Shown one piece after another: positions 1-25,120 of a DNA stretch of 32,113 nt. Where the stretch lies: IMG/VR virus record IMGVR_UViG_2721755710_000003. One strand, 5' to 3'. Position 1 is the stretch's first letter; each line of letters begins with the position of its first letter. The position numbers and the translations under genes are program-made. Source of the DNA: a virus. Its lineage: Duplodnaviria; Heunggongvirae; Uroviricota; Caudoviricetes. The notes below the pieces were generated by a model. The model was not told the origin of the DNA and ran no database searches. It saw nothing but the letters and a program-made list of their open reading frames with translations.

Positions 1-276
1 TTACCGACTGCGGCCTGAGTTTTTTAAGTGACGTAAAATCGTGTTGAGGCCAACGCCCATAATGCGGGCAGTTGCCCGGCATCCAACGCCATTCATGGCC
101 ATATCAATGATTTTCTGGTGCGTACCGGGTTGAGAAGCGGTGTAAGTGAACTGCAGTTGCCATGTTTTACGGCAGTGAGAGCAGAGATAGCGCTGATGTC
201 CGGCGGTGCTTTTGCCGTTACGCACCACCCCGTCAGTAGCTGAACAGGAGGGACAGCTGATAGAAACAGAAGCCAC
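1..276 (-). CDS. insA: IS1 InsA (transposition repressor / N-terminal transposase component), complete 91 aa
   Basis: The ORF translation [43 protein letters not shown]... matches IS1 InsA as I recall it, with a zinc-finger CxxC...CxxC and an HTH region. The stop codon is at 1-3 on the minus strand. Confidence 0.92.
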
Positions 277-331
277 TGGAGCACCTCAAAAACACCATCA
301 TACACTAAATCAGTAAGTTGGCAGCATCACC
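1..331 (-). mobile_element. IS1, partial: insA-proximal end with terminal inverted repeat; the rest of the element lies beyond the window start
   Basis: Reverse complement of 281-331 reads GGTGATGCTGCCAACTTACTGATTTAGTGTATGATGG..., which I recognise as the IS1 left terminal repeat, and the adjacent ORF is InsA. The element boundary at 331 abuts phage gene A sequence. Confidence 0.9.
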
Positions 332-2317
332 GAGCGTGTGAATCAGCGCCATGAAATGAACACCGACGCGTCGTTGCTGTTTCTGGCAGAGCGTGACCAC
401 TATGCGCGCCTGCCGGGAATGAATGACAAGGAGCTGAAAAAGTTTGCCGCCCGTATCTCATCGCAGCTTTTCATGATGTATGAGGAACTCAGCGATGCCT
501 GGGTGGATGCACATGGCGAAAAAGAATCGCTGTTTACGGATGAGGCGCAGGCTCACCTCTATGGTCATGTTGCTGGCGCTGCACGTGCTTTCAATATTTC
601 CCCTCTCTACTGGAAAAAATACCGTAAAGGACAGATGACCACGAGGCAGGCATATTCTGCCATTGCCCGTCTGTTTAACGATGAGTGGTGGACTCATCAG
701 CTTAAAGGCCAGCGTATGCGCTGGCATGAGGCGTTACTGATTGCTGTCGGGGAGGTGAATAAAGACCGTTCTCCTTATGCCAGTAAACATGCCATTCGTG
801 ATGTGCGTGCACGCCGCCAGGCAAATCTGGAATTTCTTAAATCGTGTGACCTTGAAAACAGGGAAACCGGCGAGCGCATCGACCTTATCAGTAAGGTGAT
901 GGGCAGTATTTCTAATCCTGAAATTCGCCGGATGGAGCTGATGAACACCATTGCCGGTATTGAGCGTTACGCCGCCTCAGAGGGTGATGTGGGGATGTTT
1001 ATCACGCTGACCGCGCCGTCAAAGTATCACCCGACACGTCAGGTTGGAAAAGGCGAAAATAAAACCGTCCAGCTTAATCACGGCTGGAATGATGAGGCAT
1101 TTAATCCAAAGGATGCGCAGCGTTATCTCTGCCGTATCTGGAGCCTGATGCGCACGGCATTCAAGGATAATGATTTACAGGTCTACGGTTTGCGAGTCGT
1201 CGAGCCACACCACGACGGAACGCCGCACTGGCATATGATGCTTTTTTGTAATCCACGCCAGCGTAACCAGATTATCGAAATCATGCGCCGCTATGCGCTC
1301 AAAGAGGATGGCGACGAAAGAGGAGCCGCGCGAAACCGTTTTCAGGCAAAACACCTTAACCGGGGCGGTGCTGCGGGATATATCGCGAAATACATTTCAA
1401 AAAATATCGACGGCTATGCACTGGATGGTCAGCTCGATAACGATACCGGCAGACCGCTGAAAGATACTGCGGCGGCTGTTACCGCATGGGCGTCAACGTG
1501 GCGCATCCCGCAATTTAAAACGGTTGGCCTGCCGACAATGGGAGCTTACCGTGAGCTACGTAAATTGCCTCGCGGCGTCAGCATTGCTGATGAATTTGAC
1601 GAACGCGTGGAGGCTGCACGCGCCGCCGCAGACAGTGGCGATTTTGCGTTGTATATCAGCGCGCAGGGCGGGGCAAATGTCCCGCGCGATTGTCAGACTG
1701 TCAGGGTCGCCCGTAGCCCGTCGGATGACGTTAACGAATACGAGGAAGAAGTCGAGAGAGTGGTCGGCATTTACGCGCCGCATCTCGGCGCGCGTCATAT
1801 TCATATCACCAGAACGACGGACTGGCGCATTGTGCCGAAAGTTCCGGTCGTTGAGCCCTTGACTTTAAAAAGCGGCATCGCCGCGCCTCGGAGTCCTGTC
1901 AATAACTGTGGAAAGCTCACCGGTGGTGATACTTCGTTACCGGCTCCCACACCTTCTGAACACGCCGCAGCAGTGCTTAATCTGGTTGATGACGGTGTTA
2001 TCGAATGGAATGACCCGGAGGTCGTGAGGGCGCTCAGGGGCGCATTAAAATACGGGCTGAGAACACCAAATCGTCAGCAGAGAAACGGAAGCCCGTTAAA
2101 ACCACATGAAATTGCACCATCGGCCAGACTGACCCGGTCGGAAAGAATGCAAATTACCCGTATCCGCGTTGACCTTGCTCAGAACGGTATCAGGCCGCAG
2201 CGATGGGAGCTTGAGGCGCTGGCGCGTGGCGCGACCGTAAATTATGACGGGAAAAAATTCACGTATCCGGTCGCTGATGAGTGGCCGGGATTCTCAACAG
2301 TAATGGCGCGGATATAA
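332..2317 (+). pseudogene. A: Replication initiation protein GpA (rolling-circle HUH endonuclease), 5'-truncated by the IS1 insertion; about 100 N-terminal codons missing
   Basis: The frame is open from the IS1 boundary, with the first possible start a GTG at 338 and no ATG. The translation contains the HUH motif (PHWHMMLF) and the tyrosine motif (GYIAKYISKN). At about 660 aa it is shorter than the roughly 760 aa I recall for P2 GpA. Confidence 0.85.
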
Positions 2318-2673
2318 TGACAAAGATTCACAAAGTAAAGCTGCACGCAAGATATTTCAACCTTGTGCTGGAGGGAAAAGAAACGCACAGAATTTAGGGG
2401 GATAGCCGTTATCATGTGTATGAAGCACTTGAAATGTATCTGCATCACTTGGGAGTGTGTCAACGGGGAATTTCCATCTATGTGATTTTTTGAGAGCAAT
2501 GCAGTGAAGATAAAGATACTTATTATAAATCAATGTGATAGATGGTGCCTCGCAAACGTAAATGATAGTTTTGAAGCTTCAGGGCTGATGTCGTTCATAA
2601 GACTATGTTTACGCTATCATTTATGATAAAAATAATTAATTTTTATCATAAAGATTCAACAGAGGATATGTTG

Positions 2674-4179
2674 ATGAATCAACTAAAATCAATGAATATC
2701 AATAAGTTACTTTTGGATGTTGATAACCCTCGTTTCCCGACGTCAGCAGAAAATCAGCGTGATGCTATTGCCAAGATGCTTGACTTGCAGTACGACCGCA
2801 TTTATCGCTTGGCTAAAGATATTGCTTCGAAAGGTTTAGATCCGTCTGAAAACATATTAGTTTATCCTAGTGAAGAGGAATCTGGCTTTTTCGTCGTTGC
2901 TGAAGGTAATCGTCGAGTTACAGCCCTTAAACTTTTACACTCTCCTAGACTTGCACCAACAGAAAAAGCACGGAAAGCTTTTGAAAAACTTAAGATTACT
3001 CAGCTTAAAGATATTAATGTTATAGATAACTGCGTTCTTTTTGACGATGATGAATATGAGCATTGGGTCAATTTAAAGCATACTGGTCAAAATGCTGGAG
3101 TTGGAAGAGTTGAATGGACTGCAACAGAAAAAGCACGACATCTGGCTAGGATGGGTAAGCAGTCATTTGGTAATCAAATACTTACATTTATAGAGTTCAA
3201 TACTGATTTATATAAAGAGATAATTGCTAAAAAAAGACTTTTAAAAATCACAAACATCACGCGTCTTTTTGGTGATTTAAAGGTGAGGGATTATTTTAAT
3301 TTAAAAAGCATTAATGGAGTTCTATACTCATATCAGCCTTATGAACGTTTTTGTGTACAATTAAAAAATATTTTAGATGTAATGATTGAAGAGGATGATA
3401 AAGGTAAGGCTTGTTTTACTGTTAATAGGATTCGTAGCCAAGATGACAGGGTTACATTTATTATTGAACAAAAAATAAAACCTTCAGAATCTCTTTTAGA
3501 TAAGCCGTGGAGTTTACTAGAGCCTAAATCTTTTCTTACAGAGAAAAAACATGATTCTATTGACAAAAATGATGCATCTGTGAGTGTAAAGAAAGTAGGT
3601 CTTTCAGAAGGTGATGCCTTAAAGAATACAGGTGTGGATAAACAGGAAGATGATTATTCTAGACATGTAGGCACAGAAGAGAGTAAATCTAAAGTTTCGG
3701 GTACGGAACAGAATAAAAACAAGGGAAAAACTCCTCCTAAAGTAGATCGTAATGTGTTGGTGCCATCTTATGTGAAATTTAATTTTAGAGGGCATAAGAA
3801 ATGCTCTAGAATATTTAATGAGCTTAAGTCGCATCTGACATTTGATAACACCCCTAATGCTATCTCAATATTGTTGAGAATATTTATAGATCTCTCTGTA
3901 AGCACTTTTGTTGAAGAAAACAAGTTACAATTTAAGGAACCACATAGAACTCCAGGGCTTCATGATAAGGTTAAAATGTGTGCTAATTTCCTTCGGGAAA
4001 ATAAAAAGATGACGGGGAGTCAATGTACGGCTGTAATAACTTTCTCGAGCCAAATAACTAAACATGATGGTTCATTGCAGCAGTATGTACATAACCCACA
4101 CTTAATTCCCTCAAAAGAGGCTGTCAACACTGAGTGGGATAACTTTGAGTTGTTATTAAGCCTTATTTGGAGTGAGTGA
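2674..4179 (+). CDS. Accessory protein with an N-terminal ParB/Srx-superfamily domain (DUF262/DGQHR-like), a K/E/S-rich linker and an uncharacterised C-terminal domain
   Basis: The translation has INKLLLDVDNPRF followed by GFFVVAEGNRRVTALKLL, the ParB-type box pattern. The gene is strongly AT-rich. AGAGGA at 2661-2666 sits 7 nt upstream of the ATG at 2674; the ORF is open from 2605, with an alternative ATG at 2668, so the exact start is uncertain. Confidence 0.6.
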   Translation: MNQLKSMNINKLLLDVDNPRFPTSAENQRDAIAKMLDLQYDRIYRLAKDIASKGLDPSENILVYPSEEESGFFVVAEGNRRVTALKLLHSPRLAPTEKARKAFEKLKITQLKDINVIDNCVLFDDDEYEHWVNLKHTGQNAGVGRVEWTATEKARHLARMGKQSFGNQILTFIEFNTDLYKEIIAKKRLLKITNITRLFGDLKVRDYFNLKSINGVLYSYQPYERFCVQLKNILDVMIEEDDKGKACFTVNRIRSQDDRVTFIIEQKIKPSESLLDKPWSLLEPKSFLTEKKHDSIDKNDASVSVKKVGLSEGDALKNTGVDKQEDDYSRHVGTEESKSKVSGTEQNKNKGKTPPKVDRNVLVPSYVKFNFRGHKKCSRIFNELKSHLTFDNTPNAISILLRIFIDLSVSTFVEENKLQFKEPHRTPGLHDKVKMCANFLRENKKMTGSQCTAVITFSSQITKHDGSLQQYVHNPHLIPSKEAVNTEWDNFELLLSLIWSE

Positions 4180-4191
4180 GATTTGTCTACA

Positions 4192-4211
4192 TCTGGACAT
4201 GGATGTCCAGA
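4192..4211. promoter_or_regulatory. Perfect 9-bp inverted repeat with 2-bp spacer (TCTGGACAT gg ATGTCCAGA) in the 69-bp gap between the two cassette genes; candidate operator
   Basis: Read directly from the sequence. It lies about 37 bp upstream of the methyltransferase ATG and just upstream of its GAGAGGGA ribosome-binding site. Confidence 0.4.
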
Positions 4212-4248
4212 AACTGATAAACTACAAAATCAGGAATGAGAGGGATTT

Positions 4249-5133
4249 ATGAAATTTTATACTCCATTAAGATACCCCGGCGGGAAAGGTAAGTTATCTT
4301 ACTTTTTAAAAGATGTTATTGAAAAAAACTCGTTGAATGATGGAGCATATGCAGAACCTTACGCTGGTGGTGCAGGGGTGGCTTTAGAATTATTATTGGA
4401 AGAGTATGTCCGTAAAATCTATATAAATGATGCAGATTTTGCTGTTTATTCTTTTTGGTCATCTGTTGTTAGTGATACTGATGAGCTTTGCCGACTTATT
4501 AGCCGAGCAAAGATAGATATGGATGAATGGTCTTTTCATCGCTATGTTATTTCGAATCCTTCTGAGTTTACTAAGCTTGAGGTTGGCTTTGCTGCGTTTT
4601 TCTTAAATAGAACAAATCGTTCAGGTATTCTCAAGGCGGGGGTTATAGGCGGGAAATCACAAAATGGAAAATGGAAAATGGATGTTCGCTTTAACAGGGC
4701 GGATTTAATTTCAAGAATTGAGAAGATAGCAAATTATAATCAAAGAATAGTAGTAACTAATCTGGATGCTTTGGATTTTCTTGATGCCTTGAATTTTATG
4801 GATAATATGGGAAAGGTGGATAAAAATAAAATTCTTTTGTATTTGGATCCTCCTTACTATATTAAAGGGCAAGGGCTTTACAGGAATTTTTATGAGCATG
4901 ATGACCATGTATTGGTTATGAAGAAACTCACAGAAATTAATTTCCCAAATTGGCTTGTTTCTTATGATAACGCTAAGGAAATTAAAGATATTTATAATGG
5001 ATTTCCGCAAGTTGAGTATTCATTGCAATATACAGCGCATCTCAAAAAATCTGGAGAGGAAGTGATGATTTTTTCTCCTGAAATAATTATTCCTAATACC
5101 CTGAAAGGGGTCTCAATGCCAACTTGCGCCTGA
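4249..5133 (+). CDS. Dam-family (D12 class) N6-adenine DNA methyltransferase, 294 aa
   Basis: Motifs align with E. coli Dam as I recall it: PLRYPGGKGK (Dam LKWAGGK), EPYAGGAGV (Dam EPFVGAGSV), FFLNRTNRSG (Dam FLYLNRYGYNG) and the catalytic LYLDPPYY (DPPY). The gene is AT-rich with a GAGAGGGA ribosome-binding site. Confidence 0.8.
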   Translation: MKFYTPLRYPGGKGKLSYFLKDVIEKNSLNDGAYAEPYAGGAGVALELLLEEYVRKIYINDADFAVYSFWSSVVSDTDELCRLISRAKIDMDEWSFHRYVISNPSEFTKLEVGFAAFFLNRTNRSGILKAGVIGGKSQNGKWKMDVRFNRADLISRIEKIANYNQRIVVTNLDALDFLDALNFMDNMGKVDKNKILLYLDPPYYIKGQGLYRNFYEHDDHVLVMKKLTEINFPNWLVSYDNAKEIKDIYNGFPQVEYSLQYTAHLKKSGEEVMIFSPEIIIPNTLKGVSMPTCA

Positions 5134-5280
5134 TTTTACTTATTTTTTGTCAGTAAGTAATTAGTTTGGTGCATTTATTTGCATTCATTTTTAAATGCCA
5201 GTTCTGGTATCTAACATCAGTGCTGGCGCATTCTAACCATTACTGCTGCACTGCATTTAAAGCCCTGCATGAAGCGGGCG

Positions 5281-5299
5281 GGCGAGGCGGGGAAAGCAC
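5281..5299. other. cos: Phage cos site (19-nt cohesive-end sequence GGCGAGGCGGGGAAAGCAC)
   Basis: Exact match to the P2 cohesive-end sequence as I recall it, located between the accessory cassette and the 3' end of Q, where cos lies in P2. Confidence 0.8.
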
Positions 5300-5466
5300 T
5301 GCGCGCTGACGGTGGTGCTGATTGTATTTTTTCAGCGTCTCAGCGCGTCGTGACGGCACTTAGTCTGCCCGTTGAGGCGTTGTGTGTCTGCGGGGTGTTT
5401 TGTGCGGTGGTGAGCGTGTGAGGGGGGATGACGGGGTGTAAAAAAGCCGCCCGCAGGCGGCGATGT

Positions 5467-6501
5467 TCAGTCGTTGTCAGTGTCCAGTGAGTAGTTTTTA
5501 AAGCGGATGACCTCCTGACCGAGCCAGCCGTTTATCTCGCGGATCCTGTCCTGTAACGGGATAAGCTCATTGCGGACAAAGACCTTTGCCACTTTCTCAA
5601 TATCACCCAGCGACCCGACGTTCTCCGGCTTGCCACCCATCAACTGAAAGGGGATGCGGTGCGCGTCCAGCAGGTCAGCGGCGCTGGCTTTTTTGATATT
5701 AAAAAAATCGTCCTTCGTCGCCACTTCACTGAGGGGGATAATTTTAATGCCGTCGGCTTTCCCCTGTGGGGCATAGAGAAACAGGTTTTTAAAGTTGTTG
5801 CGGCCTTTCGACTTGACCATGTTTTCGCGAAGCATTTCGATATCGTTGCGATCCTGCACGGCATCGGTGACGTACATGATGTATCCGGCATGTGCGCCAT
5901 TTTCGTAATACTTGCGGCGGAACAACGTGGCCGACTCATTCAGCCAGGCAGAGTTAAGGGCGCTGAGATATTCCGGCAGGCCGTACAGCTCCTGATTAAT
6001 ATCCGGCTCCAGCAGGTGAAACACGGAGCCGGGCGCGAAGGCTGTCGGCTCGTTGAAGGACGGCACCCACCAGTAAACATCCTCTTCCACGCCACGGCGG
6101 GTATATTTTGCCGGTGAGGTTTCCAGTCTGATGACCTTACCGGTGGTGCTGTAACGCTTTTCCAGAAACGCATTACCGAACACCAGAAAATCCAGCACAA
6201 AGCGGCTGAAATCCTGCTGGGAAAGCCATGGATGCGGGATAAATGTCGAGGCCAGAATATTGCGTTTGACGTAAATCGGCGAGCTGTGATGCACGGCAGC
6301 CCGCAGGCTTTTTGCCAGACCGGTAAAGCTGACCGGTGGCTCATACCATCTGCCGTTACTGATGCACTCGACGTAATCCAGAATGTCACGGCGGTCGAGT
6401 ACCGGCACCGGCTCACCAAAGGTGAATGCCTCCATTTTCGGGCCGCTGGCGGTCATTGTTTTTGCCGCAGGTTGCGGTGTTTTCCCTTTTTTCTTGCTCA
6501 T
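5467..6501 (-). CDS. Q: Portal protein GpQ, 344 aa
   Basis: Translation and length match P2 GpQ as I recall it. Its start overlaps the stop of P by 1 nt. Confidence 0.93.
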   Translation of the reverse strand: MSKKKGKTPQPAAKTMTASGPKMEAFTFGEPVPVLDRRDILDYVECISNGRWYEPPVSFTGLAKSLRAAVHHSSPIYVKRNILASTFIPHPWLSQQDFSRFVLDFLVFGNAFLEKRYSTTGKVIRLETSPAKYTRRGVEEDVYWWVPSFNEPTAFAPGSVFHLLEPDINQELYGLPEYLSALNSAWLNESATLFRRKYYENGAHAGYIMYVTDAVQDRNDIEMLRENMVKSKGRNNFKNLFLYAPQGKADGIKIIPLSEVATKDDFFNIKKASAADLLDAHRIPFQLMGGKPENVGSLGDIEKVAKVFVRNELIPLQDRIREINGWLGQEVIRFKNYSLDTDND

Positions 6502-8273
6502 CAGTAAAACTCCAGAATGGTGGATGTCAGCGGGGTGCTGATACCGGCGGTGAGTGGCTCATTTAACAGGGCGTGCATGGTCGCCCAGGCGAGGTCGGCG
6601 TGGCTGGCTTCCTCGCTGCGGCTGGCCTCATAGGTGGCGCTGCGTCCGCTGCTGGTCATGGTCTTGCGGATAGCCATAAACGAGCTGGTGATGTCGGTGG
6701 CGCTGACGTCGTATTCCAGACAGCCACGGCGGATAACGTCTTTTGCCTTGAGCACCATTGCGGTTTTCATTTCCGGCGTGTAGCGGATATCACGCGCGGC
6801 GGGATAGAACGAGCGCACGAGCTGGAACACGCCGACACCGAGGCCGGTGGCATCAATACCGATGTATTCGACGTTGTATCTTTCGGTGAGTTTGCGGATG
6901 GATTCCGCCTGGGTGGCAAAGTCCATGCCTTTCCACTGGTGACGCTCAAGTATTCTGAATTTGCCACCGGCCACCACCGGCGGTGCCAGTACCACGCATC
7001 CGGCGCTGTCGCCACGGTGTGACGGGTCGTAACCAATCCATACCGGGCGGGAGCCGAACGGATTGGCGGCAAACGGCGCATAGTCTTCCCATTCTTCCAG
7101 CGTGTCGACCATGCAGCGTTGCAGCTCCTCGAACGGGAACACCGATGCCTTGTCGTCAACAAATTCACACATGAACAGGTTTTTAAAATCGTCGGCGCTG
7201 TTTTCGCGTTTGAGCTGCTCAATGTCGAACAGCGTGCAGCCGCCTTTCAGGGCGTCCTCAATGGTGACAATCTGTCGCCACTGGCCGTCCGCACAGAGAA
7301 GCCCACCGGCAAGGGCGTTATGACTGACGTCGATTTCCACGCGTTCGGCGGCGCTGGCGCGTCCCCGGTTAAACAGTTCACCCGACCAGAACGGGTAGGC
7401 GTCGTGCGCCAGCGTGGACGGGGTGGAGAAATAGGTCGAGCGCAGGTGACTCTGTGAGGCCATACCTGATGCCACCTTACGCAGTACCTGAAAATTCGGG
7501 ATCCAGAAAATCTCATCGACGTACAGGTCGCCGTTATGACTCTGCGCGGTGTTGGAGTTGGTGCCGAGAAAAATCAGTTTTGCGCCGTTATTGCCCAGGA
7601 CAATCGGGTCACCGGTCAGGTCAACGTCAACCAGACGGGCAAAGGCGATGATGTATTCGCGGAACACATACGCCTGCGTTTTACTGGCCGACAGAAAAAT
7701 CTGGTTATGACCGGTTTTCAGGGCACGCAGCAGCGCCTCGCGGGAAAAATAAAACGTCGCGCCAATCTGGCGGGATTTCAGGATATCGCGGATGCGGTGC
7801 TCAAGCCCGGCACGATACCAGTGCAGCTGATAGTCGAAAGACTGCTCAAAGAAAATCTGCTCCAGCTTTTCGATGGCCTCGTCACTGAAAAAATTCTTTT
7901 TCGGTTTGCGCCGTCCGCCTTTGTTACGGTTAGCGACGTTCGGATTAAGGTCTGCCTCGTTGCCGGTCTGGCTGTAGCGGTTGACCCGTGCCAGTCGTTC
8001 AATCTGGCGTCCCAGCAGGTCAATTTCCTTGAAGTCACCGCCGGTTTTCTGTGGTTTGATGATGAGCTGGGTCAGCCGCGCTTCCAGACTCATTTCGACA
8101 CGGCTGATGGGGGCAACGCTGTCCCAGCCGTCGCGCTGTTTCCAGCTCTGCACTGTCGGGCGTTTCATCTGCAACATGGCGGCAATCTGCGGCACGGAAA
8201 ACCCCTGCCAGTACAGCAGCGCCGCCTGACGACGCGGGTCGTGTAAAAGAGTGGTGTCTGTGGTGATGGTCAT
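6501..8273 (-). CDS. P: Terminase large subunit (ATPase/endonuclease) GpP, 590 aa
   Basis: The ORF is open from 8303, but the P2-like protein starts at MTITTDTTLLHDPRR, giving 6501..8273. Gene order and size match P2 GpP. Confidence 0.92.
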   Translation of the reverse strand: MTITTDTTLLHDPRRQAALLYWQGFSVPQIAAMLQMKRPTVQSWKQRDGWDSVAPISRVEMSLEARLTQLIIKPQKTGGDFKEIDLLGRQIERLARVNRYSQTGNEADLNPNVANRNKGGRRKPKKNFFSDEAIEKLEQIFFEQSFDYQLHWYRAGLEHRIRDILKSRQIGATFYFSREALLRALKTGHNQIFLSASKTQAYVFREYIIAFARLVDVDLTGDPIVLGNNGAKLIFLGTNSNTAQSHNGDLYVDEIFWIPNFQVLRKVASGMASQSHLRSTYFSTPSTLAHDAYPFWSGELFNRGRASAAERVEIDVSHNALAGGLLCADGQWRQIVTIEDALKGGCTLFDIEQLKRENSADDFKNLFMCEFVDDKASVFPFEELQRCMVDTLEEWEDYAPFAANPFGSRPVWIGYDPSHRGDSAGCVVLAPPVVAGGKFRILERHQWKGMDFATQAESIRKLTERYNVEYIGIDATGLGVGVFQLVRSFYPAARDIRYTPEMKTAMVLKAKDVIRRGCLEYDVSATDITSSFMAIRKTMTSSGRSATYEASRSEEASHADLAWATMHALLNEPLTAGISTPLTSTILEFY

Positions 8274-10436: not shown

Positions 10437-10648
10437 ATGACGAGTCCCGCACAGCGCCACATGATGCGGGTCTCGGCAGCGATGACCGCGCAGCGGGAAG
10501 CCGCCCCGCTGCGACATGCAACTGTCTATGAGCAGATGCTGGTTAAGCTCGCCGCAGACCAGCGCACACTGAAAGCGATTTACTCAAAAGAGCTGAAGGC
10601 CGCAAAAAAACGCGAACTGCTGCCGTTCTGGTTGCCGTGGGTGAACGG
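10437..10648 (+). pseudogene. M: Terminase small subunit GpM, N-terminal fragment (interrupted by IS21-family insertion)
   Basis: Translation MTSPAQRHMMRVSAAMTAQREAAPLRH...LPFWLPWVNG then runs into IS sequence and stops after 9 unrelated codons. Confidence 0.9.
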
Positions 10649-10733
10649 TGCGTATTACCGTGAAGGAGATCGGTGAGTAACATCGATGGAGATCGGTTCG
10701 TGTCACTTTCACAGAACCGTTTTTAAATTACCT

Positions 10734-11483
10734 TCACTGATCTCCTTCGGTCAACGGAGATTGTATTTTCCGCATTGATTCTCCTTTAAGTTCGATCTTG
10801 ATACTGCCATGAACCAGTCGATCTAGGATGGCATCCGCATGTGTGGAGTCTCCGATCATTTTGTACCAGTTTTCCACCGGCAACTGGCTCACTACGATGA
10901 TTGAGCCTCGTTGGTACATCAGATCCACTATTTCCAGCAGGTCGCTACGCTGTTCTGATGAGAGAGGTTCCAGCCCCCAGTCATCCAGAAGCAGCAGATC
11001 GCTATTATTCAGCCTGGTCAAAAGTTTGCTGTATCTTCCATCAGCATGCCCCTGATAGCACTGTTCCATCAGCGCTTTAAGGCGATAATAGTAGACCTTG
11101 TATCCCTGTCGGCAGGCATTATGACCAAGTGCACATGCCAGGAACGTTTTACCGCTGCCGGTGGCCCCGGTCAGTAAAATATTTTGTTTCAGGGTTAACC
11201 AGTTTCCCTGACTGAGTGAACGGATGAGGGCCCTGTCCAGCCCTCTATTGTTACGATAATCCAGCTTTGATAACTCAGCATTAAGTCTGAACCGTGCATG
11301 TTTGATCAGACGCTCTGCCTTCCTGTTTTCACGGCAGGTTAGTTCTTCTGCTGTCAGTAATGACAGGCGTTCTTCGAAGCCCAGCTCCTGGTATGTGCCC
11401 GGCTGAGCAAGTTGCTTTTTAAGCGCATCACGGAAGCCGGTGAGTTTAAGTGCGGTCAGTTGTTCGTAAAGATGATTCATCAT
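10734..11483 (-). CDS. istB: IS21-family ATP-binding helper protein IstB, 249 aa
   Basis: Walker A LLTGATGSGKTFLACALG and Walker B LLLLDDWG, in the IstB/DnaC-like architecture, immediately downstream of istA. Confidence 0.88.
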   Translation of the reverse strand: MMNHLYEQLTALKLTGFRDALKKQLAQPGTYQELGFEERLSLLTAEELTCRENRKAERLIKHARFRLNAELSKLDYRNNRGLDRALIRSLSQGNWLTLKQNILLTGATGSGKTFLACALGHNACRQGYKVYYYRLKALMEQCYQGHADGRYSKLLTRLNNSDLLLLDDWGLEPLSSEQRSDLLEIVDLMYQRGSIIVVSQLPVENWYKMIGDSTHADAILDRLVHGSIKIELKGESMRKIQSPLTEGDQ

Positions 11484-11494
11484 TGGATCCCGTA

Positions 11495-13036
11495 TCAGTG
11501 GTAATACTCACTGCCGCGTACGTTTTCGTGTTCCATCGTGGATAACAGATCTGGTTTTGGATCCTGAACAGGTTGTTTATCCAGACCTTTTTCCAGGATC
11601 GATTTAATACCTGACAGACGCCATACCTTTGTTTTCAGAGCTCTTGCACATGCTGCATTAAGTCTGGCTTTACTGTATTTTTTATGAAGGTTCAGGAGTC
11701 CAAGGCAGAAGCGATAGCTTTGTTCCGGATGTGGACGAGAGTTCAGTATATGAAGCACATAACTATGAGTTTCACTGCCTATGTGCCCCGCCCATTCCAG
11801 AAGACGCTCTGGCGTCCAGGTGGCATGCTGTCGATGAGCTTCAGGCATGTGCTCGTTGCGGGTACTGTAGCCATAAGTACGCTTGCGCGGGTGCACAGCA
11901 ACCTCCTGCCCCTGATTGAAGAGTCTTACCAGTTCTCCGGAGATCCATGCTTCCAGTTGCTGGCCTAACAGCGAACATGGAACCGAGTAGTAATGTTTGT
12001 CGATTTCCACGTGGTAATCGGCATGAACTCTGACTTTCTTCACCAGGGTGTAACTGTAACTGGCTTCAGGAAGAGGCTTCAGTGCGGGTTTATCAAGCTG
12101 GATGAAGAGTTCTGCACGTGAATAACCCAACTTCTGCATTATTTTGTTATTCAGTCTTTCCAGCAACTCCCGAATGCGCTGATTAAGCGATGCAAGGCTG
12201 TAGAAGATCTCATGCCTGATTCGGGCCATGATCCAGCGTTCAACAACCTGAACGCCAACTTCAGCTTTGGCTTTATCTTTCGGTTTACGTGGCCGCGCAG
12301 GCAAAACTGCGACATTATAATGCTCAAGCATCTGCTGGTAGGTAGGGTTAACGTCAGGATCATACTTACATGCCCTGGATGTGGCGCTTTTCAGATTGTC
12401 CGGAACAACAAGTTCAGGAACGCCACCCAACCACTGGAAGCAGCGAACATGACTCATCACCCAGTCTTCAAGCTGCTGAGACCAGGTGGCCTCTGCCCAT
12501 GTGTAACTTGATGCCCCGAGAACAGCTACGATGACCTGAGCAGTTCTTATTTCTCCGGTCTCAGGGTCGGTAACGCCAACGGTAGGTCCACAGTAATCAA
12601 CGAAAAGTTTTTCGCCAGCTTTATGTACCTGACGCATTGATGGTGAAGTGGTTTTGAGCCATTCACGGTACATCCGGCAGTAATGGTTATAGCTGTAAAA
12701 ACCGCCTGGATTACGCTCACAGTATTCTTCCCAGAGTAGCTGCAGCGTCACGCATTTATTACGCAGTTCCCGGTGTACTGTAGCCCAGTCAGGCAGAGAG
12801 TGCTTCTTCATCTTAACCTGGGTCTGAAGGAACGCATGTTTTAGTTTTGTATCATCCCATCCTGTAGGTAAGGGCCACTGCTTTATGCCAAGTTGAGCCG
12901 CCCGATTAGCATATCTGGATACAACGGAAGGGGAGATTGCAAGACTACGACCAATTTGTCGATGGCTGAGTCCAACACCGTATTTAAGCCTAAGAATTTC
13001 TTTAAGTTTTCTCATAGAAATTGGAACTGTTGGCAT
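11495..13036 (-). CDS. istA: IS21-family transposase IstA (N-terminal HTH, DDE catalytic domain), 513 aa
   Basis: N-terminal HTH region (LSHRQIGRSLAISPSVVSRY), size and pairing with istB. I cannot name the specific IS by eye. Confidence 0.85.
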   Translation of the reverse strand: MPTVPISMRKLKEILRLKYGVGLSHRQIGRSLAISPSVVSRYANRAAQLGIKQWPLPTGWDDTKLKHAFLQTQVKMKKHSLPDWATVHRELRNKCVTLQLLWEEYCERNPGGFYSYNHYCRMYREWLKTTSPSMRQVHKAGEKLFVDYCGPTVGVTDPETGEIRTAQVIVAVLGASSYTWAEATWSQQLEDWVMSHVRCFQWLGGVPELVVPDNLKSATSRACKYDPDVNPTYQQMLEHYNVAVLPARPRKPKDKAKAEVGVQVVERWIMARIRHEIFYSLASLNQRIRELLERLNNKIMQKLGYSRAELFIQLDKPALKPLPEASYSYTLVKKVRVHADYHVEIDKHYYSVPCSLLGQQLEAWISGELVRLFNQGQEVAVHPRKRTYGYSTRNEHMPEAHRQHATWTPERLLEWAGHIGSETHSYVLHILNSRPHPEQSYRFCLGLLNLHKKYSKARLNAACARALKTKVWRLSGIKSILEKGLDKQPVQDPKPDLLSTMEHENVRGSEYYH

Positions 13037-13229
13037 AGGTATCCTTTACCGGAATGGCAAAAGATACAGATCAACACACCTGTGAAGTTCCAATAACATT
13101 GATGGAGATCACTGAATAACAAAATGAGTCAAAAGTGATCTCCATCGATGTTATTCAGCGATCTGTTCAAATGTTATTACCCGATCTCGATGGAAGTTAT
13201 TGAGTGATCTCCTTTCATGAAAATACGCA

Positions 13230-13766
13230 AACGGCGTGCTGGAGCTGGGCAAAGGTGCACAGGATGACATTCTGATGACGGTCATGCTGTGGCGTCTGGA
13301 TACCGGCGATATTGCCGGTGCGCTGGAGATTGCCCGTTATGCCCTGAAGTACGGTCTGACCATGCCGGGTAAACACCGCCGTACCCCGCCGTACATGTTC
13401 ACCGAGGAGGTGGCGCTTGCGGCCATGCGCGCTCACGCTGCCGGTGAGTCTGTGGATACCCGCCTGCTGACGGAGACCCTTGAACTGACCGCCACGGCTG
13501 ACATGCCTGATGAAGTGCGCGCAAAGCTGCACAAAATCACCGGTCTGTTTCTGCGTGACGGTGGTGATGCCGCCGGTGCGCTGGCTCACCTGCAACGTGC
13601 GACACAGCTCGACTGTCAGGCAGGCGTCAAAAAAGAGATTGAACGACTGGAGCGGGAGCTGAAACCGAAGCCGGAGCCGCAGCCCAAAGCGGCCACCCGC
13701 GCCCCGCGTAAGACCCGGAGCGTGACACCGGCAAAACGTGGACGCCCGAAAAAGAAAGCCAGTTAA
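13230..13766 (+). pseudogene. M: Terminase small subunit GpM, C-terminal fragment
   Basis: Translation resumes (N)GVLELGKGAQDDILMTVMLWRLDTGD... exactly at the target duplication. Removing the IS and one AACGG copy restores the continuous WVNGVLELGKG reading frame. Confidence 0.9.
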
Positions 13767-17304: not shown

Positions 17305-18090
17305 TTATGAGTGATTTTTATTTGATGCTTTGTATTCTAAAACCTTCTTATTGGCGTAAAAGAATTTTGTATATGACAGGAATATAACCAGACCTGAAGT
17401 GAAATAGACGAGGGATAGTATTAATAATGCTTTTTTGTGACTGTTATTATCTTTAATCTCCTGGCTTAACCATTCGGAGTCCTCCTCGTTTAGCTGTAAG
17501 AGCTTATTGCAGGCGATCTCAGGAAGTGTGTCTTTTATAAATACGTTTTGCAGTCTCTTGCAATCGGCAAGGCTATAAGTTTTATTAAATTCAACTGCTT
17601 TATTTTTGAAGGATAAAAGAACTTTGTCACTATAAACATAGTACATCATGTTTTTATATGGTATGCCTGTGGCATCCCTTACTATAACGGATTGTTCGTT
17701 GTGTATGTAACATGCGAGGAGAATGTAAAAAATACTGGCCAGAATTACAATTATTGTTTTAATTATGTGTGGTGGTTTTGTTATGTCACCCCAGATACGA
17801 GTAAGGAAAAAATACGATGTTTTTAGTTTTCCATCAATCAGTCCCTGCTGTATCATTCTCACATTTTCAATGCCTGATACATTGATTCCGTTAATTATTT
17901 TAAATAGTTGAATATCGCGCCACTCGCGGTCAAGTCTTTTTAATTTTTTGTCTGAATATCCAAAATTGAAATAATGTGCAATAAGCCTCATAAGGTTACT
18001 TTTACCAAAGCTAAAAAATGCTAATACTGCAAAGCTACAAAGGAAAAAAACGATTAGCCCCCACACATTAGTCACATTATAGCTGACCAT
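17305..18090 (-). CDS. AT-rich hypothetical membrane protein with three predicted transmembrane helices, 261 aa, antisense to the late operons at the S/V junction (P2 orf30 position)
   Basis: Hydrophobic stretches GLIVFFLCSFAVLAFFSF, IIKTIIVILASIFYILLACYI and ALLILSLVYFTSGLVIFLSY. A strong ribosome-binding site (AAGGAGAG) lies 4 nt upstream of the ATG on the minus strand. Confidence 0.7.
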   Translation of the reverse strand: MVSYNVTNVWGLIVFFLCSFAVLAFFSFGKSNLMRLIAHYFNFGYSDKKLKRLDREWRDIQLFKIINGINVSGIENVRMIQQGLIDGKLKTSYFFLTRIWGDITKPPHIIKTIIVILASIFYILLACYIHNEQSVIVRDATGIPYKNMMYYVYSDKVLLSFKNKAVEFNKTYSLADCKRLQNVFIKDTLPEIACNKLLQLNEEDSEWLSQEIKDNNSHKKALLILSLVYFTSGLVIFLSYTKFFYANKKVLEYKASNKNHS

Positions 18091-23533: not shown

Positions 23534-25120
23534 TTATTTTTTTAAAGCCTTTCCGACGTTTAAGGCTTTTGCCAAGCCATAAAATATTTGATATTTCATT
23601 CCTGTTTTTATTTTTGGTGAGATATTTGCGTAACTTCTTTCTCTAAAACACCAACGTATAAACCTATTATTATCTTCGGTTGTTTCTATATAGCATATTA
23701 CATTGAGACCAAAAAGAAACTGAAGGAAGTCATTTGCAGTTGTCATGAATTTTGGTTTTGTTGTGGAAATGGAACTAATATGAGTTTCAAGTTGTTTATA
23801 TGCTAAGAGGTATTCAGCGTAATCAAAAGTATCTTTTCCAGAGAGGAATTCAAAGAACTTTAAAAAAATCTCATAATGTTCACTTCCATAATAAAATGAT
23901 AAATGATCTTTTATTTCTCCAAGTAAATAGTTAGAGTAATCTCTTTGCATGCTAGGACTTTCAAAGTCATCTAGACTAAATTGATTTTTCCCATCATCAC
24001 CGCTGGCGTGTGATTTGATAATTTCGAGCATCCGTAATATATCTCTTGGGCGATAATATGACCAGCGAAGGAAATTAATAAATGATGTGGGGTGGTTATA
24101 ATTATCATGGACGTTGGGTGAATCCCAAGGGAAATAATGGTCCCATGCCTGTCCCTTTTTAAGGGCCATGTCTTGCTGAGTCCTAAGCAGATGATCTAAT
24201 ACCTCAAATAATTGAGAGCTACGGTGGTTAACATATTCTGTCCGCCAGTCCAAGAATACTGAATTATCTCTGATTTTTGCGTTTTGATTTTGTAATCCTA
24301 TGGATTCAAATATATCTGGCCTGATCAAGAGAACGGCCTTCATTCTCCCTTTTCCTCCCTTTATACTTGGGAAGAAATCGTTGTTAATCTCCCAGACTGC
24401 GTGAGCTAATCCTTTTATACATTCTAGATAATCATCGTATGGAATTGAGGAAGGGCGGATATCAATACCATCGATAAATAAAATATGATTTTGAGATAAA
24501 CGTATTTGGCTAAAGGCCTCTTCAAATTTTTTTTGTATATAAAATAAATTTATCTGAAATCTGCTCTCAGAAAAAGATAAAGACTCTCTTTCTTCACCTT
24601 TTAAGGTTGCATGCTTATGAAGTAGTTCGGCTGCAACTTTTGACTCTTGAACAAAACTGAGGGCTTGAATTATTTCTGGTGAAAATGCCTTAAGATAATA
24701 CTCATCTATTGCATCATTAAGTGATGAGAATTTTGAATAATTTAGTAACTTTGAAATTTTCCCTTCTTTATCTAATACTTGTTTTGATATTAATAAATAT
24801 AGAATAACTTTCCATATGCCAGAGAAGTCAGACAAATTTAAATGCTTTTCAGATTTAAGAGTGATAAATTTTTGATATTCTGTCTCTCTTATATATTTAG
24901 TTGTAGCTAGCGTATTGTTAATATTGTTATTTGAGAGATAGATAGAGTATGCGGTTTTACCAGTACCTTTCTCTCCTACAAGAAACGATATATTTGGTTC
25001 ACATAATCTAGATAGGTGATTATCACGTATGAACACTTTGTTAAGTAATTCTTTATTCTCCCTTCTCTTATAATTTTCAGCATCAGCATAGCCAAGAGTT
25101 AGATCTTTGATTGGTATCAT
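23534..25120 (-). CDS. AT-rich P-loop NTPase (Walker A GEKGTGKT, Walker B-like ILFIDGID), 528 aa, antisense to the tail genes in the Z/fun position
   Basis: N-terminal motifs FLVGEKGTGKTAYSIYL and HILFIDGIDIRP. A GAGGT ribosome-binding site precedes the ATG on the minus strand. The roughly 300-aa C-terminal region has no motif I can recognise by eye. Confidence 0.7.
   Translation of the reverse strand: MIPIKDLTLGYADAENYKRRENKELLNKVFIRDNHLSRLCEPNISFLVGEKGTGKTAYSIYLSNNNINNTLATTKYIRETEYQKFITLKSEKHLNLSDFSGIWKVILYLLISKQVLDKEGKISKLLNYSKFSSLNDAIDEYYLKAFSPEIIQALSFVQESKVAAELLHKHATLKGEERESLSFSESRFQINLFYIQKKFEEAFSQIRLSQNHILFIDGIDIRPSSIPYDDYLECIKGLAHAVWEINNDFFPSIKGGKGRMKAVLLIRPDIFESIGLQNQNAKIRDNSVFLDWRTEYVNHRSSQLFEVLDHLLRTQQDMALKKGQAWDHYFPWDSPNVHDNYNHPTSFINFLRWSYYRPRDILRMLEIIKSHASGDDGKNQFSLDDFESPSMQRDYSNYLLGEIKDHLSFYYGSEHYEIFLKFFEFLSGKDTFDYAEYLLAYKQLETHISSISTTKPKFMTTANDFLQFLFGLNVICYIETTEDNNRFIRWCFRERSYANISPKIKTGMKYQIFYGLAKALNVGKALKK

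Follow-up and report, generated by a model that had tools for sequence, protein, structure and literature searches.

The P2-like prophage of Escherichia coli elppa10 meets an IS1 element inside its replication initiator gene A, and comparison with related strains indicates that this structure is an IS1-anchored deletion of 4.6 kb and not a simple insertion of IS1 into A. We read it so because undeleted strains carry IS1 at the same host site with a 9-bp target duplication and because strain LR-24 carries an intact prophage beside that site. The best explanation, and on balance the probable one, is that a one-step adjacent deletion in an LR-24-like ancestor left behind a dead, fixed remnant. 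The stretch of DNA analysed here (the window, 32,113 nucleotides; IMG/VR record IMGVR_UViG_2721755710_000003) derives from the elppa10 chromosome (NZ_CP083478.1). Strain elppa10 is a clinical bloodstream isolate with a P2-like element of ~32 kb. Its genome was assembled from Nanopore reads alone, with Homopolish used for polishing (PMC9062692), and the chromosome is closed and circular; given this mode of assembly and polishing, single-nucleotide differences inside repeats are soft evidence.

An earlier, sequence-only reading of this DNA placed the end of the IS1 terminal repeat at 331 and the continuation of the A reading frame at 332, with about 100 N-terminal codons of GpA missing, and comparison with P2 bears out both the coordinates and the frame. 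The retained portion of the gene (A') aligns without gaps to P2 28334-30319, with 63 nucleotide and 13 amino acid differences and a shared stop codon. Gene A of P2 begins at 28034 and window position 332 aligns to P2 nucleotide 28334, which puts the junction exactly at codon 101 and the number of missing codons at exactly 100. The frame opens at 317, 15 nt inside IS1, since an in-frame TAA occupies 314-316, and the GTG at 338 (P2 codon 103) is its first start-like codon, again as first described. The accompanying claim that no ATG is available was mistaken: in-frame ATGs occur at 356 (codon 109), 419, 473 and 476. None of these is preceded by an obvious Shine-Dalgarno sequence, and no promoter-like site was found on the + strand in or near the IS1 end. 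RefSeq describes A' as 'incomplete; missing N-terminus', and its status as a pseudogene is already flagged in public annotation. Features of the locus are collected in Table 1.

Table 1. Coordinates of the IS1-gene A junction region and of associated prophage features, in window positions.
Feature	Position	Strand	Basis
IS1A, IRL-proximal 331 nt of the complete 768-bp element	1..331	-	Sequence, ORF list, source-genome locus
insA, complete, encoding the 91-aa InsA	1..276	-	ORF list
IS1 left terminal inverted repeat (IRL), 23 bp; ATCAGTAAGTTGGCAGCATCACC in the window is the reverse complement of IRL; element tip at 331	309..331	-	Sequence; pairs with IRR
A', P2-type replication initiator gene A, codons 101-761 plus stop; promoterless 5'-truncated pseudogene	332..2317	+	P2 alignment, Pfam, RefSeq
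HUH motif HWHMM, P2 GpA residues 399-403, retained	1226..1240	+	P2 comparison
Tyrosine pair YIAKY, P2 GpA Y450 and Y454, retained	1379..1393	+	P2 comparison
P2 ori region within A'	1870..1910	+	rep_origin annotation of NC_001895; 41/41 nt identical to P2
orf91 (DUF3850/ASCH) remnant, 27 codons, cut at the variable cargo boundary	2317..2398	+	Annotation
ISEc12 (IS21 family; istA/istB) in terminase small-subunit gene M	10650..13223 (approximate)	-	Annotation

The IS1 element is 768 bp in full (source-genome locus L001 11564-12331) and extends 437 bp to the left of the window. Together with this length, imperfect terminal inverted repeats of ~23 bp identify it as a member of the IS1 family: IRR, at L001 11564-11586, reads GGTAATGACTCCAACTTATTGAT, and the opposite end, ATCAGTAAGTTGGCAGCATCACC, finishes at 12331. 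RefSeq annotates its transposase as a two-segment 'IS1A family transposase, programmed frameshift' (insA plus insB', -1), and the frameshift site is known from that annotation. Neither identity is due to chance: the IS1 sequence in the window has thousands of matching copies, and A' shares 96-99% identity with gene A of 1,559 E. coli genomes and of P2. The junction between the two is found in just 1 of 5,426 complete E. coli genomes.

The far end of the element adjoins host DNA of the yegS-yegR intergenic region, in the order gatR-yegS-IS1-A'. P2 integrates at the 3' end of cyaR, ~0.6 kb to the right of the IS1 site. IS1 is flanked on the left by AAAGCCCCC, within the yegS-yegR spacer, and on the right by GAGCGTGTG, at codon 101 of A; because these flanks differ, elppa10 has no 9-bp target duplication. 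The left junction is base-identical in eight other strains. In the five that are undeleted (LR-24, YZ22PE244, ZH142, PSS-13 and L37), IS1 has the same position and orientation, carries AAAGCCCCC on both sides and is followed by yegR. In JX21CE33 and 30EVA2 the same anchor abuts a truncated portal gene, and in HUE1 it abuts a tape-measure gene ~90 nt shorter than that of JX21CE33. The strains elppa10, JX21CE33/30EVA2 and HUE1 form a nested deletion series from one IS1 anchor, in which two deletions are deeper than that of elppa10. The tail block of HUE1 lies on the opposite strand, and an IS1-mediated inversion was considered for it; JX21CE33 shows that this orientation is native to that phage type, so HUE1 is simply a deeper deletion. 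K-12, without IS1 at the yegS-yegR site, differs at 1 of 2,900 nt of this host flank, and identity of the flank is therefore no proof of descent shared with the IS1-bearing strains.

In LR-24 a near-identical P2-like (Peduovirus) prophage lies intact at the same locus beside the yegS-yegR IS1, with gene A whole and with the same PD-lambda-5 cargo. To the right of the junction the two strains differ at 46 positions in 9,369 bp, 43 of them in one patch inside A, and outside this patch they are 99.96% identical. Measured on LR-24, the deletion in elppa10 spans 4,621 bp (L003 2380-7000) and takes in yegR, attL with its copy of the 29-bp att core, int, C, cox, orf78, B, orf80-83 and A codons 1-100, whereas LR-24 retains yegR, attL, int, C, cox, B, orf80-83 and a full-length A. 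In LR-24, IRL is followed by the second copy of AAAGCCCCC and then yegR; in elppa10 it is followed by nucleotide 301 of A. One junction of the element is thus that of the undeleted relatives and the deletion begins exactly at the other IS terminus, as in an IS-anchored deletion. The sequences flanking the elppa10 element lie 4,621 bp apart in LR-24, unlike the flanks of a simple insertion.

Survival of the deleted interval was checked with a chimeric query comprising 1.8 kb of elppa10-specific cargo as an anchor and seven pieces of the LR-24 interval (181-300 bp each). The pieces, drawn from yegR, int, C, cox, B, orf81/82 and the 5' part of A, gave no megablast match elsewhere in the NZ_CP083478.1 chromosome record, and the anchor alone was covered. 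A' occupies a single place in the chromosome; a second A gene, suggested when window 300-2317 was used as the query and gave two places, was discarded once the 32 nt of IS1 had been removed from that query and one place was left. Where the upstream region had been described as separated or lost, the sampled pieces without a chromosomal match and the single copy of A' speak for loss and against separation.

A' retains much of what defines GpA. The Pfam Phage_GPA domain (PF05840) is present above its gathering score (E=9e-124, 413 bits), with profile positions 1-321 of 321 aligned to residues 31-360 of the truncated ORF; in the intact GpA of LR-24 the domain spans residues 133-462. Compared with P2 GpA (NP_046795), an HUH rolling-circle initiator, A' is collinear over residues 101-761 with 13 substitutions and matches it fully at the HUH motif, at Y450/Y454 and across the internal ori nick region. 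Nicking of P2 is annotated at P2 29892, equivalent to window position 1890. The two tyrosines of YIAKY are the active-site pair of P2 GpA, an enzyme that acts in cis, as Lindahl reportedly found in 1970. The difference lies in front of the domain: codons 1-100, the start codon and the Pe early operon are gone from A', which is for this reason a pseudogene fragment and not a functional member of the family. Far from being a complete coding sequence with its own start and Pe-driven expression, it has lost codons 1-100 along with cox, B, orf80-83 and the Pe region. Despite an undamaged catalytic domain and ori, A' is predicted to be a silent pseudogene, because its start codon and Pe have been lost and it faces the 5' end of the divergent insA.

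The conclusion of the sequence-only reading that this prophage is defective in replication stands, while the loss of the GpA N terminus is not its strongest argument, as the Pfam domain, HUH motif, tyrosines and ori are all retained. What is decisive is the loss of the Pe region, B, cox, int and attL, together with the ISEc12 insertion in terminase gene M. From P2 biology, the remnant would be unable to excise, since attL, int and cox are missing; it would confer no P2 immunity, since C is missing; and it would neither replicate nor switch on its late genes, since B and A are missing. Of the two att cores, attL falls within the deleted interval along with int and cox, and attR survives immediately beyond the right edge of the window, at the 3' end of cyaR. 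ISEc12 in M is a second, independent inactivating lesion of the elppa10 prophage. It splits gpM into annotated fragments at 10437-10649 and 13224-13766; an inverted-repeat search for the exact ends of ISEc12 and its duplication gave no clean boundaries. The other late genes are annotated as intact, and the full late set is broken by the split gpM. The truncation of orf91 predates the IS1 event, because the same remnant is found in LR-24 and PCP07014. What remains would be a fixed remnant with defence cargo, head, tail and lysis genes, ogr and attR.

To account for this structure in one step, an LR-24-like ancestor would have had the order yegS - IS1 (with the 9-bp duplication AAAGCCCCC) - yegR - attL - int - C - cox - orf78 - B - orf80-83 - A - PD-lambda-5 cargo - late genes - ogr - attR - cyaR - yegQ. 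The resident IS1 would have transposed intramolecularly into gene A, a transposase-mediated adjacent deletion. Such an event would keep the element and its far junction, while the near copy of the duplication and all DNA as far as the new target would be discarded. In elppa10 the loss runs from the IRL tip through A codon 100, and IRL is joined to codon 101. A missing target duplication typically reflects adjacent deletion or IS x IS recombination, and adjacent deletions often extend stepwise (PMC11708052). The elppa10 locus resembles known IS-anchored deletions in its conserved IS junction, in a deletion that starts at an IS terminus, in the loss of the deleted-side copy of the duplication and in the nesting of end points (A codon 101, the portal gene and the tape-measure gene) on one anchor. 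It differs in that the end product alone is seen here, in natural isolates, and in that the IS1 sequence of elppa10 is unlike that of every undeleted relative.

This last difference bears directly on the route. As read in a Nanopore-only assembly, the elppa10 IS1 is identical to the site-b (yegS-yegR) IS1 of no relative, differing from the IS1B-type copies at 9 positions and from the LR-24 copy at 13. All 13 are internal (289-687) and both ends (1-288 and 688-768) match, so one-step deletion from an LR-24-like copy would have to be supplemented by gene conversion within the element or by errors in the sequence. Among the 9 that separate the elppa10 element from the IS1B-type copies is position 761, 7 nt from the IRL tip. 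No intermediate or closer relative was found, and a search with the ISEc12-gpM junction matched elppa10 alone.

A two-step route is the most serious competitor, which we regard as possible though distinctly less probable. A second IS1A would have entered A at codon 100/101, oriented like the resident IS1, and RecA-dependent recombination between the two copies would then have removed the 4.6 kb and one IS copy. This sequence of events yields exactly the observed junctions and the missing duplication, and IS x IS recombination is a recognised source of absent duplications (PMC11708052). It is also consistent with the type of the element, which is IS1A and differs by 1 nt from the IS1A of strain C10 but by 9 nt from the IS1B-type copies that strains with an identical host flank carry here; a crossover in the first ~324 nt would account for the switch in sequence and the deletion together. 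Against it, IS1 is present at that position of A in 0 of 5,426 genomes, and two events are needed where one suffices. The site-b IS1 of LR-24, beside the same prophage, already has the IS ends of elppa10, with G at 761, so the IRL end need not be foreign, and IS1 SNPs are weak evidence in a Nanopore-only, homology-polished assembly. The original notion that IS1 inserted into A survives as the first step of this route and not as a simple insertion. The final structure and its consequences are the same under the two-step route and the one-step deletion.

Whichever of these routes was taken, we think it very unlikely that A' is still alive, as a truncated GpA made by read-through from GTG 338 or ATG 356 that nicks a resident or incoming P2-like ori. 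The ORF is open over 659 codons, with its Pfam domain complete and its HUH motif, tyrosine pair and ori undamaged; an intact ORF is in any case to be expected when a deletion is recent, and only one genome shows the junction. A promoter-like site and a Shine-Dalgarno sequence are absent, and the neighbouring insA/insB and yegS are transcribed in the opposite direction. A more elaborate proposal, that low-level A' from either start is a shortened HUH nickase acting on its own ori or on incoming P2-like genomes and aiding superinfection interference beside PD-lambda-5 and the other hotspot cargo, is likewise improbable speculation. On a milder reading, IS1 by the cyaR attachment site may repeatedly erase P2-like prophages in one direction while their defence cargo stays fixed in the chromosome.

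IS copies are classic sites of misjoining, and the collapse of two IS1 copies during assembly would have dropped the 4.6-kb segment between them. We hold such an artefact to be most improbable, since the Nanopore GridION reads assembled with Flye are long enough to span a 768-bp repeat (PMC9062692) and the chromosome closed as a circle. Moreover, 0 of the 7 sampled pieces occur anywhere in the chromosome record, and similar IS1-anchored deletions appear in the independent assemblies of other strains. Least probable of all, and negligible barring an assembly error, is the simple insertion of IS1 into a complete prophage whose 5' A segment, B, cox, C and int would continue past the far end of the element: it accords with the right-hand junction taken alone, whereas the other end lies in host DNA upstream of yegS at the occupied site of eight other strains, shows no 9-bp duplication, and the sampled upstream phage pieces are missing from the chromosome.

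The elppa10 remnant can be compared with the K-12 cryptic prophage PR-X (ogrK and the yegZ fragment of gene D). PR-X uses the same cyaR 3'-end attachment site, between yegQ and yegR, and is likewise a P2-type prophage that has lost its left part and kept its attR-proximal end. It differs in being ~0.6 kb long, in keeping yegR and in having an edge without an IS element, whereas the elppa10 remnant is ~32 kb long, lacks yegR and is bounded by IS1. The elppa10 event is ordinary prophage decay and leaves current understanding unchallenged. The P2-like element of elppa10 would be a locked-in, non-inducible remnant, and PD-lambda-5 and the other hotspot anti-phage genes would therefore now be vertically inherited chromosomal DNA. 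The series of deletions from the IS1 anchor offers a natural example of stepwise prophage erosion from one host site, and could be used as a test bed for distinguishing adjacent deletion from IS x IS recombination.

The window matches nucleotides 2803712-2835824 of the E. coli elppa10 chromosome (NZ_CP083478.1) with 100% identity; the strain is a Taiwanese bloodstream isolate, and Flye was used to assemble its genome from Nanopore reads (PMC9062692). Extension leftward to the other IS1 end, a step proposed in the sequence-only reading, reveals a complete 768-bp element (11564-12331 of elppa10 region L001). Its far end lies in the yegS-yegR spacer, 247 bp upstream of the host gene yegS, and has no contact with phage DNA. 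The 8-9 bp target duplication sought by that reading is absent, the nine bases outside the IS1 ends being AAAGCCCCC and GAGCGTGTG. On the phage side, sequence and collinearity with bacteriophage P2 both confirm that the IS1 left terminal inverted repeat (IRL) ends at 331 and that the A frame resumes at 332.

A query of yegS plus IS1 adds eight strains (nine records) in which IS1 occupies the identical base in the identical orientation, hereafter site b. LR-24, YZ22PE244, ZH142, PSS-13, and L37 carry AAAGCCCCC at both sides of IS1, followed by yegR. No prophage occupies the yegS-yegR locus in PSS-13 or L37; in YZ22PE244, ZH142, and LR-24, the left end of a P2-like prophage comes after yegR. The LR-24 annotation lists int, C, cox, orf78, B, orf80-83, and an A of full length (761 codons). 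The elppa10 and LR-24 prophages show 46 differences over 9,369 bp right of the junction and are also alike in their cargo genes, so that the LR-24 prophage is essentially the elppa10 phage.

Relative to LR-24, elppa10 lacks 4,621 bp (2380-7000 of LR-24 region L003), with the contents listed in the table. Just right of the window end, at L008 32214-32304, the att core overlaps the 3' end of the cyaR sRNA gene (Rfam RF00112, 100.7 bits), and attR is kept, ~100 bp past the right end of the window. We queried elppa10 with a chimera of an elppa10-specific anchor and seven segments drawn from the missing DNA (yegR, int, C, cox, B, orf81/82, and A 5'); the anchor alone matched, at one place, and at megablast sensitivity no deleted-gene piece was found elsewhere on the chromosome. 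The upstream genes, previously described as separated or lost, are on these seven samples lost and not separated. The truncated gene A (A') has a single match in the chromosome, an apparent second place having vanished once the query was trimmed of its 32 nt of IS1. The uncharacterised host gene yegR (105 aa) is deleted with the phage arm in elppa10, JX21CE33, 30EVA2, and HUE1, and no second copy was found elsewhere in elppa10.

One IS junction conserved to the base, a deletion running from the other IS tip, loss of the near duplication copy, and absence of the deleted DNA from the genome together form the signature of an IS-anchored deletion. We regard an IS1-anchored deletion of 4.6 kb as nearly certain.

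Features of the elppa10 window and contents of the interval missing relative to LR-24
Feature	Position	Strand	Details
IS1, IRL-proximal third	1-331		sequence reading
insA, complete	1-276	minus	91 aa
IS1 left terminal repeat, reverse complement	309-331		23 nt; sequence reading
HUH motif in A'	1226-1240		kept
Tyrosine pair in A'	1379-1393		kept
ori region in A'	nick-site equivalent at 1890		same as P2 over surrounding 41 nt
orf91 (DUF3850/ASCH) stub	2317-2398	+	27 codons; left edge of cargo region
PD-Lambda-5_A	2674-4179	+	PADLOC E=1.4e-167
PD-Lambda-5_B	4249-5133	+	D12-class adenine methyltransferase; PADLOC E=1.4e-121
ISEc12 (IS21 family; istA/istB)	~10650-13223	minus	in terminase small-subunit gene M; boundaries approximate
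Hypothetical protein	17305-18090	minus	260 aa; between virion-morphogenesis gene and baseplate gene V
P-loop ATPase, Sll1717 family	23534-25120	minus	527 aa; NCBIfam NF047389, E=4.5e-62
IRL-side copy of duplication	missing interval
yegR	missing interval
attL copy of att core	missing interval		29 bp, TAAAAAAATAAGCCCGTGTAAGGGAGATT
Phage genes	missing interval		int, C, Pe/Pc control region, cox, orf78, B, orf80-83
Part of gene A	missing interval		codons 1-100

IS copies that lack a target duplication are known to arise both by adjacent deletion and by recombination between IS copies (PMC11708052). We favour a one-step route, which we hold to be somewhat probable, in which the resident IS1 would have transposed intramolecularly into A, yielding a transposase-mediated adjacent deletion. 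This preference rests on the documented stepwise growth of adjacent deletions (PMC11708052) and on the fusion of the same anchor to other end points elsewhere, with an IS1 identical to the undeleted site-b copy. In JX21CE33 and 30EVA2, site-b IS1 runs directly into a truncated portal gene (L006 7432/7433 and L010 4432/4433), and in HUE1 into a tape-measure gene ~90 nt shorter than that of JX21CE33 (L005 7432/7433), all three deletions affecting one shared second type of P2-like prophage. As JX21CE33 shows, this phage natively has its tail block on the minus strand; HUE1 is therefore a deeper deletion, and its reading as an inversion is rejected.

In a possible but less probable two-step route, a second IS1 inserts into A and then undergoes homologous recombination with the resident copy. 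The elppa10 IS1 is of the IS1A type: it differs by 1 nt from the IS1A found in strain C10, against 9 nt for the IS1B-type copies at site b and 13 nt for the LR-24 copy. A crossover between the resident element and an IS1A that had inserted in A would account for this sequence. However, the elppa10 and LR-24 elements are identical at both ends (1-288 and 688-768), and SNPs in a 13-copy repeat carry limited weight when the assembly is Nanopore-only and homology-polished. Nor is host-flank identity diagnostic of descent: K-12 has no IS1 at the site, and yet its flank departs at just 1 of 2,900 nt. Simple IS1 insertion into A, as originally proposed, is excluded by the host flank and the missing duplication.

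Across strains, IS1 occupies three positions in the yegS-yegR spacer (elppa10 L001 11317-11563; homologous spacer in L014, L013, and L003), always facing the same way, and every position has a 9-bp duplication of its own: TGGGGACAG in C10, AAAGCCCCC in site-b strains, and AAGGGCCTC in 1EC213, whose position is matched over equal length by four more records (three strains). The spacer is an IS1 hot region.

The A' reading frame runs from 332 to a stop at 2315-2317 and aligns collinearly with gene A of P2, beginning at P2 nt 28334. With the start of P2 A at 28034, codon 101 begins at base 332, and the earlier estimate of about 100 missing N-terminal codons becomes exactly 100. The frame is shut by TAA at 314-316 and thus opens 15 nt inside IS1, with GTG 338 as the first start-like codon, as had been noted; the accompanying claim that no ATG is available is wrong, in-frame ATGs occurring at 356, 419, 473, and 476, none with a recognisable ribosome-binding site. 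RefSeq labels the frame 'replication endonuclease, incomplete, missing N-terminus', adjoining an IS1A. The Pfam Phage_GPA domain is whole (profile 1-321/321, E=9e-124); because it spans residues 133-462 of intact GpA, the lost 100 residues lie wholly N-terminal of it. The exact IS1-A junction occurs in 1 of 5,426 complete E. coli genomes, namely elppa10, and the A' frame has no internal stop codons, which together suggest a probably recent event. Forty-three of the 46 differences from LR-24 fall within a 1.4-kb stretch of A (448-1858), with three in the other ~8 kb compared; this clustering suggests that one of the two lineages acquired a patch of A by recombination with another P2-like phage.

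With the Phage_GPA domain, HUH motif, tyrosine pair, and ori all kept, protein truncation is not the strongest reason for defectiveness. The prophage lacks the early promoter region, cox, and B, and its A lacks a start codon. Upstream of A' stand insA/insB and yegS, transcribed in the opposite direction, and the sole promoter-like site at the IS1 end faces inward on the minus strand. With attL, int, and cox gone, the element is predicted to be unable to excise, and with repressor gene C gone it should confer no immunity. GpA acts in cis, and P2 late transcription requires replication besides Ogr. We infer that the prophage would be non-inducible. ISEc12 in gene M is a lesion independent of the IS1 deletion, and elppa10 alone has this junction. 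Four more genomes have ISEc12 elsewhere in or beside gpM, and in PCP07014 a related prophage has it in its orf82/83 region. Overall, truncation and defectiveness survive from the sequence-only reading, the latter borne out by gene content including the split gpM, while insertion into A does not.

Between A/orf91 and the portal gene, at the P2 tin/old hotspot, lie two genes that make up the anti-phage system PD-lambda-5, a broad-range, compacted RM+Abi-like system known from this position in P2-like prophages (Vassallo et al., PMC9519451). The adjoining orf91 stub is identical in LR-24 and PCP07014 and therefore stems from cargo replacement, not from the IS1 event. The Sll1717-family ATPase, between the tail-fibre assembly and sheath genes, lies at the Z/fun position, the second variable hotspot of P2. 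Pfam gives no match for it and PADLOC only a marginal one, and it is a candidate defence gene. The gene for the 260-aa protein, which has no match in Pfam, NCBIfam, or PADLOC, is possibly a third moron locus.

The elppa10 case is ordinary IS-mediated prophage decay, already known in kind. The K-12 cryptic prophage PR-X, at the same attachment site (cyaR 3' end), is a 0.6-kb remnant retaining ogrK and a fragment of gene D (yegZ). Its one feature of mild interest is that it belongs to a small natural series of nested deletions, all starting from a single IS1 anchor next to the P2 attachment site. Through this decay, PD-lambda-5 is now locked into the chromosome.
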